This document shows, in pieces, positions 5,888-13,069 of a DNA stretch of 64,000 bases. The notes under the pieces are model-generated. The model saw only the letters and a list, made by a program, of their open reading frames with translations. It was not told the origin of the DNA and ran no database searches. Position numbers and translations under genes: made by a program. Origin of the DNA: an uncultured Acholeplasmataceae bacterium (lineage in GTDB: Bacteria > Bacillota_I > Bacilli_A > RF39 > UBA660); contig CAJKWD010000001.1 in NCBI GenBank assembly GCA_905203475.1, forward strand, positions 15,599-79,598, written 5' to 3'. The first letter of the stretch is position 1, and each line of letters opens with the position of its first letter.

Positions 5888-5911
5888 AAATAGTCACTAA
5901 AAAGTGACTAT
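5888..5911 (-). terminator. Rho-independent terminator downstream of the XRE-membrane gene
   Basis: 9-bp inverted repeat aatagtcac/gtgactatt overlapping the stop codon, followed by a U-rich tract on the minus strand. Confidence 0.45.
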
Positions 5912-7446
5912 TCCTGTAATAATGATTCTAAATTTTGTTTATAACTATTCAACTTATCTTGGTATTCTGTTACTTTAGATTCTAATTCACTATTTTGTTC
6001 TTCTAATTTTGTATTTTCTTCTGTAACTTGATCTAATTGTTCCTGTAAAGATTCAATCTCTGACTGTTCTTCTACTTCCATTTCACGTTTGATTGAATTA
6101 TGATAATGATCTAATAAACGATTTATATTTTCTTCACTAGCATACACTGTTACATGATATTGATATAACTCTGAATAATTATATAAATGTTTTTCTTTTA
6201 AACCATCTATGAATAGAGATACTGCTTTTGAAACAAATACATTTTCTGGATTTTCTTCGCGAACAAAAACAAATCCATTATCATGAGATACGATATCTAC
6301 ACTTAAATATTCTGGGAAGTATTTAACCACAATTTTAACTTCATCACCAAGCGTATTATCTACCTTCATATCATAAAAATCTAGAGAATCAATTACCAAA
6401 GAATCAGACATTGCAATTTTCTTTTCAATTGTTTTTGCTTTTTCAGTAATTGGTGCTTTATCAGTATATGTAGTATTTACAAATTCTAACATAGTGATTC
6501 CAAAAGAAATTCCTAGGCCAATTAAAGATACGATTGTCAAAATAACTGTTCTTTTGATTGGTGTTTTACGATTAAATAGAAAGTTAAATAATAATTCTAG
6601 AATGAGTATGTGAAGAATTATAGCAAAAATAATTCCCAATAATATTCCAAAGTGAAATACTCCTTGGAATAATAAAATAAACATGACAATAAATGCTGCC
6701 GAGAATAGAAATAGAGAAAGGGCAAATGGACATATTAAAATAAAGAAAACCATGATTTTTATAAAGAAAATAGCAATTTTACCAAGAGCTTCAAAAAAGG
6801 CATAGCTTTTTTCCGGTCTTATTTCTTTCATGACCTTTTGCTCTGGTATCAGTTCTACATCCTTACTATTTTTTTCTGTACTAGTTGATACAGATTGAAA
6901 ATCATAGCGATCTAAATACATCATTTTAAATAAATAAACTAATAATATGATATATAAGATAAAGAAACTACCATTTAATAATAATTCAATTAAGCCTATT
7001 ACAAAATAGATAAATTGATTGCTTCCTAAAGTAAGAATTAAATTAGTTAAACGATTACTTAAAAAGTCAAATGGAATATATCCTATCTGTAGTATGATAG
7101 CAACAACAAACATCACAAAAAGACATTTTATGCTCTTTTTTAATCCCATTGTATGAAACATATGATAAGTCTTGTTCACAAGATCTAACATGCTATCAAT
7201 TAAGTTATTGATACTATTCTTTTTCTTTTCTCCTATTTTAATATCTGTAATCTCATCGTTTGTTAAATCATCTAGGCTGCATTTAAATATCTTACACATA
7301 GCAAGTAATTTATCCATTTCAGGATATGTTTGACCAGACTCCCATTTCGATACAGACTGTCTTGTCACATCTAATAAGTCAGCAAGTTTTTCTTGTGACA
7401 TCTTATTTGCTTTTCTCAAAGCTTGTAGTTTTTCACTAAAACTCAT
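5908..7446 (-). CDS. XRE-family HTH transcription regulator fused to a polytopic membrane domain and a C-terminal coiled-coil
   Basis: N-terminus LQALRKANKMSQEKLADLLDVTRQSVSKWESGQTYP is a Cro/C1-type HTH. It is followed by about 8 hydrophobic helices. The C-terminal 60 aa are heptad-like and E/Q/L-rich. Confidence 0.6.
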   Translation of the reverse strand: MSFSEKLQALRKANKMSQEKLADLLDVTRQSVSKWESGQTYPEMDKLLAMCKIFKCSLDDLTNDEITDIKIGEKKKNSINNLIDSMLDLVNKTYHMFHTMGLKKSIKCLFVMFVVAIILQIGYIPFDFLSNRLTNLILTLGSNQFIYFVIGLIELLLNGSFFILYIILLVYLFKMMYLDRYDFQSVSTSTEKNSKDVELIPEQKVMKEIRPEKSYAFFEALGKIAIFFIKIMVFFILICPFALSLFLFSAAFIVMFILLFQGVFHFGILLGIIFAIILHILILELLFNFLFNRKTPIKRTVILTIVSLIGLGISFGITMLEFVNTTYTDKAPITEKAKTIEKKIAMSDSLVIDSLDFYDMKVDNTLGDEVKIVVKYFPEYLSVDIVSHDNGFVFVREENPENVFVSKAVSLFIDGLKEKHLYNYSELYQYHVTVYASEENINRLLDHYHNSIKREMEVEEQSEIESLQEQLDQVTEENTKLEEQNSELESKVTEYQDKLNSYKQNLESLLQE

Positions 7447-7539
7447 TTTATCACCTCGTGATCATTTTATAATGTAACTCTGGTTGCATACTACCAATTT
7501 TCAGTTGTTTTTTGTTACTTTTTAGTTGCGATTTTATTT

Positions 7540-7577
7540 TTTAAAAGAAAAAGTGAATTTTAAATTGAAAATTCACT
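7540..7577 (-). terminator. Rho-independent terminator of the five-gene operon ending in the RluA gene
   Basis: 10-bp perfect stem agtgaatttt/aaaattcact overlapping the stop at 7560, followed on the minus strand by UUUUUCUUUU. Confidence 0.55.
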
Positions 7578-8240
7578 CCAAGGATAACGTTTCGGAAGTG
7601 GTAATGAAAAATACATCATTTCTTTTGTCGTTGGATGTTGAAATGTAATAGCATGTGAGAATAGAGCTATCTGTTGTCCTGGCTTAGCTTGTTTAGAATA
7701 TTTTTGATCACCAAATAAAGGATAACCATGATGAGAAAATTGAACACGAATTTGATGAGAGCGACCTGTTTTTAATTGGATTTTTACAAGACTCATATCT
7801 TTTTTATATTGTAAACATATAAAATCTAATATAGCCTGTTTTCCCTGTGGATGAACAGTTACAATGTTTCTTTTCTCATTCTTTAATAAATAATCTTCTA
7901 AGTGTCCTTGTTTTTCTATATTTCCTAAAACAACTGCATAATATTCTTTTTTAAACTGATGTGTTCTTACTTGTTCACTAAGACGGCTGGCTGCTTTAGA
8001 AGTTTTTGCAAATACCATTACTCCTCCAACTGGTCTATCTAAACGATGTACAAGCCCTAAATATACATTTCCTGGCTTCTGATATCTCTTTTTTAAATCA
8101 GCTTTTAACATCGTTAATAAATCTAAATCATGACTCTCATCAGCTTGGACTGGTATATTAATTGGCTTTTCAACAACTAATAAATGATTATCTTCATAAA
8201 TAACATTAATCTTTTGATTCATAACGTCCATATATACCAC
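7560..8240 (-). CDS. RluA-family pseudouridine synthase (no S4 domain)
   Basis: HRLDRPVGGVMVFAKT catalytic-Asp motif. Size is 226 aa. Alternative ATG starts exist at M4 and M7. The gene overlaps the upstream gene by 17-35 nt. Confidence 0.8.
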   Translation of the reverse strand: MVYMDVMNQKINVIYEDNHLLVVEKPINIPVQADESHDLDLLTMLKADLKKRYQKPGNVYLGLVHRLDRPVGGVMVFAKTSKAASRLSEQVRTHQFKKEYYAVVLGNIEKQGHLEDYLLKNEKRNIVTVHPQGKQAILDFICLQYKKDMSLVKIQLKTGRSHQIRVQFSHHGYPLFGDQKYSKQAKPGQQIALFSHAITFQHPTTKEMMYFSLPLPKRYPWSEFSI

Positions 8241-9078
8241 AAGGTAATACCAAATGATTTGTTTCTATTGGTAAACCTACTTCTCCTGTATCAATGATAC
8301 CTTCAGGATATTTCTTTAAAATAGTTGTTTTCAAAATATTTTCTAATACAGTACTACTAATACCAGTTGTATAAGAATTGATAAGCACAAACAAAGGTTT
8401 ATCAGATAATATCTTCATACATGCTTCAATTAAAACATAAATATTATCCTCAAACTTCCATACTTCTCCGTTTGGTCCTCTTCCATAACTTGGAGGATCC
8501 ATAATAATAACGTCATATTTACGTCCCCTTCGTGCTTCTCTTTCCACAAATTTTAAACAATCATCTACAATATAGCGAATATGATGATTTTCTAACCCTG
8601 ATAATTTGGCATTTTCTTTTGCCCATTGTACCATACCTTTAGCTGCATCTACGTGTACGACTTCTTCAGCACCGGCATAAGAACAAGCAATGGTTGCTCC
8701 TCCTGTATAGGCAAATAAATTTAATACTTTAATAGGACGATTAGCACGTTGAATCTTTTGAATCATATAATCCCAGTTGGTTGCTTGTTCCGGAAATAAA
8801 CCAGTATGTTTAAAATTAGTAGGGGTTACTTTAAATGATAAATCTTTATAATGAATCACCCAATAGTCGGGTAATTTACGATAAAACTTCCATTCTCCTC
8901 CACCTTTATGACTACGGTAATATCTTCCATCAACTCGATTCCATTTTTCATCTTTTTCTGTCTTCCATATTGCCTGAGGATCAGGTCTTCTCAGAACGAT
9001 ATCTCCCCATCTTTCTAATTTTTCTCCATTTCCGGCATCAATACAAACATAATCTTTCCATTCATTACTTACTCTCAT
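8206..9078 (-). CDS. Class I SAM-dependent RNA methyltransferase (COG1092 / RlmI-like, lacking PUA)
   Basis: FAYTGGATIACSYAGA SAM-binding motif I, and IIMDPPSYGRG motif IV. Size is 290 aa. Confidence 0.7.
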   Translation of the reverse strand: MRVSNEWKDYVCIDAGNGEKLERWGDIVLRRPDPQAIWKTEKDEKWNRVDGRYYRSHKGGGEWKFYRKLPDYWVIHYKDLSFKVTPTNFKHTGLFPEQATNWDYMIQKIQRANRPIKVLNLFAYTGGATIACSYAGAEEVVHVDAAKGMVQWAKENAKLSGLENHHIRYIVDDCLKFVEREARRGRKYDVIIMDPPSYGRGPNGEVWKFEDNIYVLIEACMKILSDKPLFVLINSYTTGISSTVLENILKTTILKKYPEGIIDTGEVGLPIETNHLVLPCGIYGRYESKD

Positions 9079-9085
9079 ATAATCC

Positions 9086-9454
9086 CTACGCTTTCTGAAA
9101 TTCTTTCTGTAATACCTCTAAATTTTCTTTGATAGTAGAAACTGCCAGTTCTCCTTTTAAAGTATCTGGAATTTCTGTCAATAAAGAATATTCTTCTAAC
9201 ATTTCTTTTTGCACTTCTTTTAAATCATGATGCAATAATTTTTCTTTTAATTGTTTCATATCATGCATCATAAATAAAAAATAACTCGCACAGATAAATT
9301 CTAATCTTTCTTGTTTTGTAATATCTTCAATTAATTCATAAGATTTATCAATCATATCAGAAAGTGCTTTTTCTTTTAATAGGGCACTTCCTTTATCTTC
9401 ATCGTGAATTAAATATTCTTTTAATTCTACTAAAATTGTCTCATTTTCTGTCAT
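9086..9454 (-). CDS. Hypothetical acidic helical protein, 122 aa
   Basis: Open frame with an AGGAG RBS 6 nt upstream. It starts 4 nt after the stop of the upstream gene. No recognisable motif. Confidence 0.5.
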   Translation of the reverse strand: MTENETILVELKEYLIHDEDKGSALLKEKALSDMIDKSYELIEDITKQERLEFICASYFLFMMHDMKQLKEKLLHHDLKEVQKEMLEEYSLLTEIPDTLKGELAVSTIKENLEVLQKEFQKA

Positions 9455-9457
9455 ATT

Positions 9458-10264
9458 TTACTCCTTTACTATATGTTTTATTTTTTGCTTCTTCTTAGTT
9501 AAACGATATGCTTGTTCTTCTATTCCCTGTTCTACAAATTGATTGATTAAAACATCATTGCTGCTATTATATTTTAACCATTGATAATACTGCATCTTCT
9601 CATGTTGTAAGCGTTTTGGTGTAACGACTGCCCAATAAGCAGAGCTCATACAAGTCACATCATGGTGAAACATTCCAAATAAATAAGATAGTTTTTCACG
9701 ATTATATAACTTTTTTTCATGCATTTCATAATCCATGTTATCGTAGAAAATCTCGTTTGGTAGTTGTGGATAATAACGTATTAAAAACATAAAATCAGCA
9801 AAAATTTCATCCTCTTTTTGATAATATTCTGGATACGCTCCTACCATTTCTTCCACCATAAATTCAACATATAATTCTTGTACTCTAGAAAGATATGTAT
9901 CGAGAACAGTTTCTGTATTTAATGTAGGTGATATGACCAAATTACGATTTTGATACATCCAATTATATGCATCATAATAAGAACTAGAAACCAACTGTGT
10001 TTCGTAAACATACCATAAATTATCCCCACTAAGAAAACCATAAACAGATTCAAAATAAGTATTAAAATCAGCAGTTGGATAATATTCGATTGCTTTAAAA
10101 AAATACTCTTTTAAAACATAACAAAATTCCTCTTGATACTGACATGTAGCGTTCATTACAAATTGTTTTTGCAATTGTAACCAATATTGATATAAATCTT
10201 CTTTACGATTTTGTGATAAAGAAACATTTAAACCATTTAATTCTTCCAAAAATTCTTGTCTCAT
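9458..10264 (-). CDS. Hypothetical soluble protein, 268 aa, rich in aromatic and acidic residues
   Basis: Its start ATG overlaps the stop of the AbiEi-like gene (ATGA). A GGAGG RBS is present. There is no nucleotidyltransferase GS..D.D motif and no HEPN Rx4-6H motif. Confidence 0.5.
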   Translation of the reverse strand: MRQEFLEELNGLNVSLSQNRKEDLYQYWLQLQKQFVMNATCQYQEEFCYVLKEYFFKAIEYYPTADFNTYFESVYGFLSGDNLWYVYETQLVSSSYYDAYNWMYQNRNLVISPTLNTETVLDTYLSRVQELYVEFMVEEMVGAYPEYYQKEDEIFADFMFLIRYYPQLPNEIFYDNMDYEMHEKKLYNREKLSYLFGMFHHDVTCMSSAYWAVVTPKRLQHEKMQYYQWLKYNSSNDVLINQFVEQGIEEQAYRLTKKKQKIKHIVKE

Positions 10265-10803
10265 AAAACCTCCGTCAAAATAACCTCCGTTATTTTCTTT
10301 TTACTCACAAATTGATTTAAATACCCCTTTAACTTTCTCATATCTATTATTTCAGGATGACGATGGTAATAGTTTTTTATTTCTTGATAATACTCTGGAT
10401 CTAACTTTTTACGATATCGAACTAATTCAATTAACATTCTTTCTTTATCATAAATAGGAATCCATGTATTATTGACTTGAATTTTAGTCACACCAATATC
10501 ATAAATAGCTGCATCCATAAAATATTGTTTAATCTGTGGATCGACAATGCGCCATGCCGGTTTTTTTGTCACAACAACATATTTATCAGGTCTTTTACTG
10601 GTCATTCCATGATAGAAAAAAGCACTTTCCAATGTAAAAATAACATTAGGATGTTTTACTAGAAAAGTAGATAACTCTGTTACATTACGGCGATTTGAAT
10701 AAACTCCTTTTTCAATTTTAAACATAATTCGCTGATCAACTAATCGTTCAATATCTTTATGAGCATAACCCTTTTTTTTCAAATCTGAATATTTATAAAG
10801 CAT
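10261..10803 (-). CDS. AbiEi-like antitoxin-family protein: N-terminal wHTH plus an AbiEi_3-like C-terminal domain
   Basis: YSDLKKKGYAHKDIERLVDQRIMFKIEKGVYSN resembles the AbiEi N-terminal wHTH, which ends in a GxY. IFTLESAFFYHGMTSKRPDKYVVV resembles the AbiEi C-domain. A strong AAAGGAGGGG RBS is present. Confidence 0.45.
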   Translation of the reverse strand: MLYKYSDLKKKGYAHKDIERLVDQRIMFKIEKGVYSNRRNVTELSTFLVKHPNVIFTLESAFFYHGMTSKRPDKYVVVTKKPAWRIVDPQIKQYFMDAAIYDIGVTKIQVNNTWIPIYDKERMLIELVRYRKKLDPEYYQEIKNYYHRHPEIIDMRKLKGYLNQFVSKKKITEVILTEVL

Positions 10804-10825: not shown

Positions 10826-10854
10826 ATTATAACATAATTTAAAAATAAGTATAG
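10826..10854 (-). promoter_or_regulatory. Putative extended -10 promoter (TGtTATAAT) for the AbiEi-like operon
   Basis: On the minus strand: ctatac, 17 nt, TGtTATAAT, then a strong RBS. Divergent from the tgt promoter. Confidence 0.4.
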
Positions 10855-10873: not shown

Positions 10874-10902
10874 TCGACAAAATATTTATAATATGTTATA
10901 AT
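10874..10902 (+). promoter_or_regulatory. Putative sigma-A promoter of tgt
   Basis: TCGACA, 17 nt, TGtTATAAT. Confidence 0.45.
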
Positions 10903-10914
10903 GTACCAGTATTT

Positions 10915-12147
10915 ATGGGAGGGCATATGGCAGATTATAAAAATAACAACCAATTTTATTTTGAAGTAAAAAACAAAATACCAGGGAAACTAGGCCGTAC
11001 GGGGATTATTCATACCCCACATGGTGATATTGAGACACCAGCATTTATTGCCGTTGGAACAAGAGGAGAAGTACGTTTTGTGTCAATGAATGAACTAAAA
11101 GAAATACAAGCACAAGCAATGCTAAGTAATGGCTATCATCTTCGTAATGAATGCGAAAATATTAAAGAACATGGTGGTCTAGCAACTTGGTCTGGATGGA
11201 ATGGTCCCACTATAACAGATTCTGGAGGATTTCAAGTTATGTCTTTAGGATCAGGACTTGGTAAAGTAGTTAGTATGGATCGTGAACAAGAAGTTATTAA
11301 CACTGATCCAAAAGATAGATTAGCACGTGTTACAGAAGATGGTGTTTACTTCTATGATCCAATTTTACAAAAAGATGATTTTATTGGACCAGAAGAATCT
11401 ATGAAAATTCAATGTAATATTGGAGCAGATATTCACATGGCATTTGATGAATTAACGTCTCTTGCTGATAGCTATGAATATAATGTAGAAGCTTTAAAAA
11501 GAACAGAACGATGGGCTAAAAGAAGCTTAGAAGAACATAAAAAGCATTGTAACGATTTAGGATACCATCAAGCACTATATGGTGTTTTACAAGGTGGTAG
11601 ATGGGAAGATTTAAGACGTTCTACAGCCAAACATTTATCCAAAATGGATTTTGATGGATATGGACTAGGTGGAGCCTTCTTAAAAGAGGACCTAGGCGAA
11701 ATATTGAGATGGTGTTGTGAAGAATTACCAGAGAATAAACCTCGTCACTTATTAGGATTATCTAGACCAGATGATATTTTAATTGGTGCCGAAATGGGGG
11801 CAGATACATTTGATTGTGTAGCTCCAACAAGAGAAGCTAGACATGGACGAATCTATACAAAATATGGTAATATTAGGCTAGCAAAATATAAAGATAGTCT
11901 AGAAGTATTAGATAATCATTGTGATTGTCCTACTTGTAAAAGTGGAATTACGAGAAAAGAATTATGTCATTTGTATAAATCACATGACCCAGAAGAAAAA
12001 AGAAAATATTATAAACTAGCATCGATTCACAATTTACGATTCATATTAAGATTAACAGAAGAAATTAGAGATGCGATTAATAACAATTGTTTTGAAGAAT
12101 ATAAAAATAATTTTTTAAAAGATTATTATCATACAGACAAAAAATAA
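10915..12147 (+). CDS. tgt: Queuine tRNA-ribosyltransferase
   Basis: GRTGIIHTPHGDIETPAFIAVGT and the CDCPTCKSG...H zinc site. The start may be the second ATG at 10927, which has a GGAGGG RBS. Confidence 0.9.
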   Translation: MGGHMADYKNNNQFYFEVKNKIPGKLGRTGIIHTPHGDIETPAFIAVGTRGEVRFVSMNELKEIQAQAMLSNGYHLRNECENIKEHGGLATWSGWNGPTITDSGGFQVMSLGSGLGKVVSMDREQEVINTDPKDRLARVTEDGVYFYDPILQKDDFIGPEESMKIQCNIGADIHMAFDELTSLADSYEYNVEALKRTERWAKRSLEEHKKHCNDLGYHQALYGVLQGGRWEDLRRSTAKHLSKMDFDGYGLGGAFLKEDLGEILRWCCEELPENKPRHLLGLSRPDDILIGAEMGADTFDCVAPTREARHGRIYTKYGNIRLAKYKDSLEVLDNHCDCPTCKSGITRKELCHLYKSHDPEEKRKYYKLASIHNLRFILRLTEEIRDAINNNCFEEYKNNFLKDYYHTDKK

Positions 12148-12631: not shown

Positions 12632-13069
12632 CTATTTACTTTCCTTTAATTCTACTGGTTTTTGAGCTTGATGTGGATGTTCATTACCAGCATATACAAA
12701 TAATTTCTTATACATTTGACGTCCTAATCTTCCTTTTGGAAGCATTCCTTTAACTGCTCTTTCAATCATCTCTTCCGGATAATTTTCTTTCATAGTACGA
12801 GCAGTTCTTTCTCTTAATCCTCCTGGATAACCACTGTGGTTATAATAAACTTTTGCATCTAACTTATTTCCAGTAAGATTAACTTTTGATGCATTGACAA
12901 CAATTACATAATCTCCACAATCAACATGTGGTGTAAAAGTTGGTTTGTGTTTACCACGTAAAATAGTAGCAACTTTAGCAGCTAAACGACCTAAAGTCAT
13001 ATCTGTTGCATCAATTACATACCAATTACGAGATACTTCTTCTTTTTTTTGCATGTAAGTATTTTTCAT
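12632..13069 (-). CDS. rplM: 50S ribosomal protein L13
   Basis: [35 protein letters not shown]. The start is placed at M17 of the listed ORF, which has an AAGGG RBS. The longer listed ORF has no RBS. Confidence 0.85.

Follow-up and report, generated by a model that had tools for sequence, protein, structure and literature searches.

A toxin-less AbiEi regulator upstream of a conserved methyltransferase–RluA gene pair in uncultured low-G+C gut Bacilli: a probable case of domestication

Layout of the abiEi locus

We analysed a run of five minus-strand genes, headed by an abiEi gene, in a 64,000-nucleotide (64-kb) stretch of DNA from an uncultured Acholeplasmataceae bacterium (contig CAJKWD010000001.1, positions 15,599 to 79,598). 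This stretch, hereafter called the window, has a low G+C content of ~28-30%. AbiEi is one half of AbiE, a bicistronic system known from Streptococcus agalactiae and Lactococcus lactis, in which it is paired with the DUF1814 nucleotidyltransferase (NTase) AbiEii and represses its own expression through paired inverted repeats (PMC3985639, PMC7319586). AbiE has been classed as a type IV and, in a recent proposal, as a type VII toxin-antitoxin (TA) system (PMC3985639; bioRxiv 10.64898/2026.01.19.700257). In the window, abiEi is followed by two genes designated u268 and u122, a gene for a COG1092-type class I S-adenosylmethionine (SAM) methyltransferase (MTase) and a gene of the rluA pseudouridine synthase family, with tgt diverging on the plus strand from a promoter of its own (Table 1).

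A preliminary description of this DNA had listed the five tightly packed genes, their three recognizable families, the divergent tgt and a promoter near 10830, and all of this was borne out. The genes run from 10803 to 7560 with overlaps or gaps of no more than 7 nt, the AbiEi-like regulator, the MTase and the synthase are supported by PADLOC AbiEi, PF10672 and PF00849 matches, and the promoter corresponds to an extended -10 element conserved in nine lineages. The terminator that it placed at 7540 proved a weaker call, as described below.

Table 1. Genes and putative regulatory elements of the abiEi locus (positions of the window)
Feature	Position	Strand	Description
abiEi	10803-10261	minus	180 aa, isoelectric point (pI) 9.7; winged helix-turn-helix (wHTH) plus C-terminal domain; loop T-S-K-R-P
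u268	10264-9458	minus	268 aa, acidic (pI 4.9), Tyr-rich orphan
u122	9454-9086	minus	122 aa, acidic (pI 4.7), predicted helical bundle
MTase gene	9078-8206	minus	290 aa; COG1092-type class I SAM methyltransferase, 2IGT-like branch
rluA-family gene	8231-7560	minus	223 aa; catalytic domain only, HRLD motif
Extended -10 element TGTTATAAT	10834-10826	minus	Putative promoter of the five-gene unit, read from the sequence
17-nt cis-element AAAC(C/A)TATACTT(A/C)TTTT	10858-10842	minus	At the -35/operator position of the abiEi promoter
Weak intrinsic-terminator-like element	7579-7543	minus	12-bp AT-rich hairpin (7579-7550) over the rluA stop, then UUCUUUU (7549-7543)
tgt	10927-12147	plus	406 aa; divergent neighbour of the five-gene unit
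tgt promoter	10874-10902		11/12 match; -35 at 10874-10879, TG-extended -10 at 10897-10902
21-nt inverted repeat	10826-10846 / 10882-10902		86% complementary; spans the -10 elements of the abiEi and tgt promoters
hthTM	5908-7446	minus	Fusion protein: XRE-type HTH, multi-pass membrane region, C-terminal coiled coil
Block upstream of hthTM	~7455-7535		GCAAC/GTAAC/CAAC repeats and TTGGTAGTATGCAACC

Every junction within the unit is short. An ATGA overlap, read from the sequence, joins abiEi to u268; 3 nt separate u268 from u122, with an AAGGAG ribosome-binding site (RBS) lying inside the 3' end of u268; and 7 nt separate u122 from the MTase gene, which in turn overlaps the rluA-family gene by 26 nt. 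The start that gives 223 aa for the last product was taken from gene calls on identical metagenome contigs, the GTG at 8240 merely opening the longest open reading frame (ORF). The five genes share one strand and one upstream promoter, a terminator scan returned no terminator-like site inside any of them, and their arrangement and coupling are kept across lineages, from which we infer that they are co-transcribed.

The putative promoter is accompanied by a GGAGG RBS for abiEi (10814-10810). The promoter and RBS elements are both kept across nine lineages, with TATAATA invariant in all 9. A generic promoter scan reported near abiEi only another, weak minus-strand site (10877-10848), missing TGTTATAAT because it lacks a -35 hexamer; over the whole region, promoter-like matches were at chance level (40 found, 43 expected). 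Placed between the back-to-back abiEi and tgt promoters, the 17-nt block is invariant at 15 of 17 positions over 9 lineages, compared with 1 of 37 four-fold degenerate sites of abiEi, and is a candidate operator or -35 substitute. The 21-nt inverted repeat in the same interval is retained only partly beyond the -10 element in L011; it could be a shared operator, or merely two similar TG-extended -10 promoters.

At the distal end of the unit, a terminator scan requiring G+C pairs found nothing at 7540, its sole terminator lying at 5914-5887, past the next gene. The AT-rich hairpin over the rluA stop, with its U-tract, is nevertheless a plausible though weak terminator (minimum free energy -9.9 kcal/mol, z = -2.8); it is kept in the window, L105 and L106 and deleted in L099/L101. 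The next gene, hthTM, has a highly conserved upstream block of its own, which supports a unit boundary after rluA.

AbiEi and its two companions

By its profile matches, the first gene clearly encodes a full-length COG5340 AbiEi with an N-terminal winged HTH and a C-terminal domain. The protein matched PADLOC model PDLC02238 over residues 1-180 of 180 (5.3e-50), Pfam AbiEi_1 at 4.6e-5 (24.1 bits, cut-off 22.2) and, in a phmmer search, S. agalactiae AbiEi (PDB 6Y8Q; 5e-11, residues 7-174). Its orthologues beside u122 belong to one genus-level clade, described below; the closest homologues outside this clade share 35-45% identity and are all ~180 aa long. Every out-of-clade abiEi context examined has AbiEii or a remnant thereof (271 aa in L013, 267 aa in L109, a 95-aa fragment in L103, and 170 aa with a weak N-terminal match in L016), in the company of recombinases, restriction-modification genes and helicases. 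Plasmid and phage relatives of AbiEi are annotated likewise.

Stable binding of AbiEii and full antitoxicity both depend on residues D85, E86 and I87, which lie in a loop of AbiEi (bioRxiv 10.64898/2026.01.19.700257). In our alignment (A11), this toxin-contact loop reads [TS]D-x-[IV]P in 20 of 20 sequences outside the clade (19 homologues and S. agalactiae AbiEi) and T[SD]KRP in 8 of 8 members inside it, as TSKRP in the window, P0006 and L106 and as TDKRP in P0007-P0010 and L107. At the level of sequence, the loop is changed from an acidic/hydrophobic D-x-I to a basic (S/D)-K-R exactly in the toxin-less lineage. The wHTH and the C-terminal ERMLIEL core are retained in the clade.

AbiEi is under very strong purifying selection, also where u268 has been lost. 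Its ratio of nonsynonymous to synonymous substitution rates (dN/dS) is 0.004 among close lineages and 0.004-0.09 overall, and inside the u268-less clade it is 0.017-0.028 in the two comparisons with usable divergence.

The second gene, u268, encodes a hypervariable, acidic orphan protein (11.6% Tyr, no transmembrane (TM) segment) with a predicted all-alpha fold. Neither u268 nor u122 matched Pfam, NCBIfam, PADLOC, PHROGs or PDB sequence profiles, and no relative of either appeared in IMG/VR scans or in tblastn searches of phage and plasmid records. Family scans of the u268 members at permissive thresholds gave nothing recurrent, and neither a word-indexed search of 5.8 billion proteins nor an exhaustive search of 1.84 billion representatives with an HMMER profile went beyond the protein's own family and fragments of it. 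Members at 44-47% and ~20% identity surfaced through synteny alone, so that these two libraries are evidently incomplete for the clade. Across eight sequences (alignment A10), the invariant residues are nearly all aromatic or hydrophobic. The AlphaFold2 (AF2) model is all-helical with no beta-strand and of low confidence (predicted local distance difference test, pLDDT, 53), which left a Foldseek search uninformative.

We also considered u268 as a diverged AbiEii and, at the level of sequence, rejected this identification. BLASTP, hhalign profile-sequence and profile-profile comparisons were all negative, the probability being at most 0.14% for u268 and u122 against AbiEii sequences and profile, and neither protein matched PF08843 or the PADLOC AbiEii models. 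NTase motifs I and II of AbiEii take the form hG[G/S]x15DhD (PMC3985639), and KGG...RATxDxDxDF is invariant in our AbiEii alignment (A13); this signature is missing from u268, whose predicted model is all-alpha. Divergence past recognition is conceivable.

The divergence of u268 outpaces that of every gene around it. Through L105, L106, L107 and L099, its identity to the window falls through 72, 47, 44 and 23%, while AbiEi stands at 100, 95, 87 and 85%, u122 at 94, 81, 80 and 70%, the MTase at 98, 94, 89 and 84% and the RluA-family protein at 93, 85, 79 and 69%. The dN/dS of u268 is 0.18-0.26, and in sliding windows it lies at 0.25-0.39 in the N-terminal two-thirds, against 0.05-0.15 in the C-terminal third. 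Positive selection was rejected, no sliding window exceeding a dN/dS of 0.4. These rates may reflect relaxed constraint, or else selection too localized for a sliding dN/dS test.

The gene is dispensable in one sub-clade, being absent from L011, L012, L019 and L108. In L011, L019 and L108, u122 starts 12 nt after abiEi with no remnant of u268 between them, and identity to the window is 86-87% for AbiEi, 78-79% for u122, 88% for the MTase and 73% for the RluA-family protein. In a tree of MTase plus RluA rooted on L021, the remaining lineages grouped to the exclusion of L099/L101, whose u268 is divergent, in 66% of bootstraps. This topology favours a single clean loss of u268.

The third gene, u122, has relatives in 58 protein clusters, none of them named, at 49% identity or more. 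It lies directly upstream of the MTase gene in every context examined (~20), sharing an ATGA overlap with the MTase start in L099, and it occurs wherever the K-R-loop AbiEi occurs. Its dN/dS is 0.04-0.12. The AF2 model comprises seven helices (pLDDT 87, predicted template modelling score, pTM, 0.78) and had no Foldseek match in PDB or BFVD. An HMG-box-like assignment was discarded: the matches were sub-threshold, confined to closely related members and judged compositional.

Two irregular copies of u122 were seen. At 10805-11185 of L002 (~9281 of the window), a single-T deletion in a T6 run splits the gene into two 61-aa ORFs. We rejected pseudogenization here, as the change is a single base in a T6 run of a contig otherwise 99.75% identical; it is probably an assembly error, a strain-level frameshift being possible. 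In the 142-aa family member P0111, the first ~30 residues fit the consensus and the remainder is unrelated, and this sequence is probably a frameshifted or chimeric short contig.

Distribution of the methyltransferase–RluA pair and of the upstream genes

The MTase matched PF10672 (9.5e-18, 64.9 bits, cut-off 27) and, over residues 8-289, an uncharacterised Agrobacterium protein (PDB 2IGT; 5.5e-64). RlmI-type structures matched its core only (residues 90-200), and the NCBIfam equivalogs scored far under their cut-offs (RlmK/L 89.6 against 466, RlmI 56.1 against 712). COG1092 holds several branches of unknown target (PMC3367195). The RluA-family protein matched the full PF00849 model (3.2e-33, 115.5 bits), and VHRLDRPVGG is visible in its translation. 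It scored 186.4 bits with TIGR00005 against a cut-off of 192.7 and 77-119 bits with the equivalogs against cut-offs of 286-378, giving no assignment to RluA, RluC, RluD or TruC; its best PDB matches were the catalytic domains of RluD and RluC. The RNA target of either enzyme appears uncharacterised.

An MTase-anchored scan of a genome collection confirmed 576 relatives, and we mapped the window proteins onto the best 80 loci, 75 of which lie outside the clade. The rluA-family gene is directly downstream of the MTase gene in 58 of the 80, in Erysipelotrichaceae, Paenibacillaceae, Bacillaceae and Clostridia, with no abiEi-u268-u122 triplet. The upstream neighbours of the pair elsewhere include a divergent PcrA/UvrD helicase, OmpR-type regulators, GNAT and DegV, and the intergenic region there is typically 80-150 nt, a spacing that implies that the pair normally heads its own transcription unit. 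In the 75 loci outside the clade, no gene resembled u122 or u268 and no small gene recurred upstream. The MTase and RluA of the clade do not differ obviously in length or domain content from those of other genomes, and their dN/dS values are 0.015-0.04 and 0.04-0.09. By this distribution, the MTase and rluA genes are an old, autonomous two-gene unit across Bacillota. In many Erysipelotrichaceae (L022-L098 loci), a PcrA/UvrD-type helicase gene is divergent from the pair.

The upstream genes have a far narrower range. Among the 80 mapped loci, abiEi and u122 occurred only in the closest relatives (L011, L012, L019), and on present sequences both genes are restricted to one genus-level clade of about ten lineages, drawn from metagenome contigs and metagenome-assembled genomes labelled 'uncultured Bacilli bacterium' or 'Firmicutes bacterium'. 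Within the clade, the synonymous rate (dS) is similar for all genes (0.4-0.9 among close lineages), and the same five-gene order persists in lineages with dS up to ~1.3. Like dS combined with low dN/dS indicates that the triplet co-diverged with its neighbours and that all three genes are real and constrained. G+C content, G+C at third codon positions (GC3) and codon usage of the triplet are native (ameliorated), and with dS matching that of the flanking genes we rejected a recent horizontal insertion.

The triplet occupies a fixed site beside truA-rplM-rpsI and ribosomal protein operons. L020 and L021, whose MTases are 77% and 73% identical to that of the window, keep the truA-rplM-rpsI synteny, lack tgt and have other genes between rpsI and the MTase gene: a DUF3800 gene and a coiled-coil/2-TM protein with a faint SLATT-like match in L020 (1772-3449), and two small membrane proteins in L021 (6048-6932). 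Neither u268 nor u122 resembles the genes in this slot of L020 or L021. The differing contents mark the slot upstream of the pair as a variable region, which looks like a small integration hot spot beside ribosomal protein operons.

The tgt product matched PF01702 (2e-108) and passed the TIGR00430 cut-off (343.9 bits against 306.75). The longest tgt ORF begins at 10915; a GGGAGGG RBS sits between that ATG and the ATG at 10927, so that the product starts at 10927 (406 aa, as called on other contigs). No out-of-clade locus (0/75) has tgt within 7 kb of the MTase gene. Adjacency to tgt is kept in most clade members, and in L099, the deepest-branching one, a co-directional 77-aa ORF rather than tgt lies upstream of abiEi.

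Several features of the surroundings were recorded. The large region of ribosomal-protein, ecf and truA-rplM-rpsI genes in the window is nearly all on the minus strand. An ORF of 171-173 aa lies between truA and rplM on the opposite strand in L009 (739-1260, minus) and L011 (4904-5419, minus), and the window is without it. An Abi_2 (PF07751) gene lies ~3 kb downstream of rluA in L011 (13560-14576), among cell-wall genes, and is missing from the matching region of the window. For riboswitches and leader RNAs, an Rfam search of the region at E <= 1 gave only a sub-threshold RT-6 match outside the locus, in the rplM leader/5' region (12862-12935, minus; 24.8 bits against a gathering threshold of 46.7, E = 0.056), which is most likely a chance match. 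The block upstream of hthTM is near-invariant even in L099/L101, where the hthTM protein itself is only 47% identical, and the gene is absent in L010 and L011; this pattern suggests that hthTM has its own promoter and operator.

Origin and possible role of the upstream module

On balance, we consider it probable that the locus is a chimeric operon, in which a toxin-less, AbiE-derived module has been domesticated and fixed upstream of the old MTase-rluA unit, supplying its promoter. The AbiEi locus is, on this account, a domesticated variant of a known system rather than a novel pathway of RNA modification. An AbiE-derived module would have arrived directly upstream of the pair, and replaced the pair's own upstream region, in the ancestor of a single genus-level clade of uncultured low-G+C gut Bacilli, so that the enzymes came to be read from the abiEi promoter. 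With no AbiEii to neutralise and its loop rebuilt, AbiEi would have become a domesticated wHTH transcription factor; by analogy with characterised AbiEi proteins, its most likely action is to repress its own promoter at the 17-nt block by the -10 element, setting the levels of u122, MTase and RluA. u268 would fill the position and size slot of AbiEii as a fast-evolving, non-enzymatic-looking protein that could be lost without consequence for the rest, and u122 would be the likelier of the two to work together with AbiEi, or possibly with the translationally coupled MTase. AbiEi autoregulation and any role of u268 or u122 are inferred. The domestication reading draws on precedents for AbiEi acting beyond its toxin. 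MMSYN1_0730, the AbiEi of the minimal cell JCVI-syn3.0, is quasi-essential even after AbiEii deletion (PMC13621843), and the AbiEi of Mesorhizobium huakuii is a broader regulator (PMC8436566).

Several points weigh against this reading. The direction of the event, whether module to pair or pair to module, is taken from distribution only, and the rooting that favours loss of u268 has a bootstrap of only 66%. Clear paired inverted repeats of ~23 bp like the known AbiEi operators were not found upstream of abiEi, which has only weak AT-rich palindromes. A promoter inside u122 or u268 may exist. The search for an AbiEii acting in trans covered the 64-kb window only, where no AbiEii-like sequence was found, and the low dN/dS of AbiEi could mean that it is essential as an antitoxin to u122 or to a toxin encoded elsewhere.

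The preliminary description had offered two explanations of the triplet. According to one, RNA-modification enzymes cluster here and the unidentified proteins are RNA-modification or ribosome-associated factors. The clustering is largely accidental and lineage-specific, tgt lying near the MTase gene in none of the 75 out-of-clade loci, and for the factors themselves nothing beyond adjacency was found: neither family, fold nor wider co-occurrence ties them to such roles, and u268 is dispensable. The other, by which a TA-like module has entered a modification operon, is the closer of the two and is partly supported as to origin, yet co-divergence and native composition argue against a recent insertion, and the missing AbiEii and remodelled loop against a canonical TA system. 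The comparison of MTase-rluA neighbourhoods that it had called for showed the pair adjacent without the triplet and abiEi with u122 confined to the clade. It had named absence of the triplet from close relatives as counter-evidence to a link with the pair; this holds by half, in that u268 alone is absent there and abiEi-u122-MTase-rluA stay beside tgt.

A working, non-canonical three-gene AbiE-like TA or abortive infection system, with u268 or u122 as a new effector, the other as adaptor or sensor and the two enzymes as passengers, strikes us as fairly unlikely. The position of u268 does recall AbiEii, at like size (263-268 against 267-271 aa) and with the same ATGA coupling, and its rapid change and presence/absence variation are frequent in conflict genes; a basic AbiEi loop facing two acidic proteins would fit a re-targeted interface, and in relatives the slot can hold defence-associated genes, DUF3800 in L020 being one. 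However, AbiEi remains strongly constrained where u268 is gone and so is not merely an antidote to it. Moreover, u268 has no conserved catalytic-looking motif, no dN/dS window above 0.4 and no relative in PADLOC, PHROGs, IMG/VR, phage or plasmid records, while u122 is a small acidic predicted helical bundle with no toxin-like feature, and the module is inherited vertically at one fixed core-genome site, unlike the mobile and patchy AbiE loci. A more elaborate version we hold to be quite improbable. In it, abiEi-u268-u122 would be a three-component AbiE descendant whose NTase was replaced by u268 and the new-fold u122, with the loop re-targeted to bind both, coupling an infection or stress signal to MTase and synthase expression or activity and defending the cell by re-tuning modification of the translation apparatus.

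Closer attachment of the small proteins to the enzymes is also unlikely in our view. Here u122, and perhaps u268, would be clade-specific cofactors, chaperones or specificity subunits of the MTase, the synthase or both, with AbiEi merely their regulator. The constant position of u122 directly before the MTase gene, at a 7-nt gap or an ATGA overlap, a dN/dS resembling that of RluA and an acidic charge suited to partnering basic enzymes are what such a role would lead one to expect; yet the pair does without such a partner in hundreds of genomes, none of the 75 out-of-clade loci has one, and the clade enzymes are not obviously altered in length or domain content. The association of u122 with the K-R-loop AbiEi is equally strict, u268 is dispensable, and neither protein has a sequence or fold tie to RNA-binding or modification factors. 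That the adjacency is meaningless, the triplet being a decaying defence remnant with ORFs that are not real or not functional, is very improbable indeed: u268 is an orphan with a low-confidence model, cleanly lost in one clade, and one metagenome strain has a frameshifted u122, but the three ORFs are intact across lineages with saturated synonymous sites, their dN/dS (0.004-0.26) is well under 1, promoter and RBS are conserved, and the u122 frameshift is most likely an assembly error.

Compared with characterised AbiE systems, the locus shares a promoter-proximal, full-length AbiEi coupled to a downstream gene of ~265 aa and a conserved cis-element overlapping the abiEi promoter. It differs in lacking an adjacent DUF1814/COG2253 NTase, the downstream u268 having no NTase motifs and a predicted all-alpha fold; in its number of genes, three against two, with a pair of housekeeping-type enzymes behind them; in its loop, (S/D)KR in place of DEI; and in its core-genome, vertically inherited setting, in contrast to mobile DNA or defence islands. 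With MMSYN1_0730 and M. huakuii AbiEi, it has in common an AbiEi kept and important independently of AbiEii, a small-genome low-G+C lineage and possible effects on downstream genes or wider regulation. In those cases, however, AbiEii is or was adjacent and no replacement partners are described, whereas here two clade-specific genes fill the AbiEii position and the loop is remodelled. The Mycobacterium tuberculosis COG5340/DUF1814 pairs Rv2827c-Rv2826c and MenA-MenT (PMC7319586) likewise have a two-domain AbiEi-fold regulator; in those pairs it autoregulates through repeats over its promoter. They keep the NTase toxin, and their 23-bp inverted-repeat operators are clear; no such repeats are demonstrated here.

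The enzymes also stand apart from characterised relatives. The COG1092 rRNA methyltransferases RlmI (m5C1962), RlmK (m7G2069) and RlmQ/YwbD (m7G2574) (PMC3367195, PMC10798245) share the PF10672 class I SAM-MTase core with the locus MTase, which 2IGT matches at full length, but RlmI and RlmQ have an N-terminal PUA/EEHEE region that the locus enzyme lacks, and its constant RluA-family partner is not described for characterised COG1092 members. The synthase shares the PF00849 catalytic domain and HRLD motif with RluA, RluC, RluD and TruC, and its length and absent S4 domain with RluA and TruC, but it matches no characterised enzyme at equivalog level.

Beyond the locus itself, these results delimit a widely conserved, uncharacterised MTase-RluA gene pair whose RNA target is worth finding, a protein (u122) with a confidently predicted helical-bundle model and no detectable relative, and another (u268) that diverges several-fold faster than all surrounding genes. 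Annotation almost invariably makes AbiEi the antitoxin of AbiEii, and defence-finders score it so automatically; the locus offers a probable natural example of an AbiEi that has outlived its toxin, a caution that a lone AbiEi match is insufficient for a defence-system call. It bears equally on the unexplained quasi-essentiality of the toxin-less AbiEi in the minimal cell JCVI-syn3.0. It may also tell how antitoxin-type regulators become domesticated.

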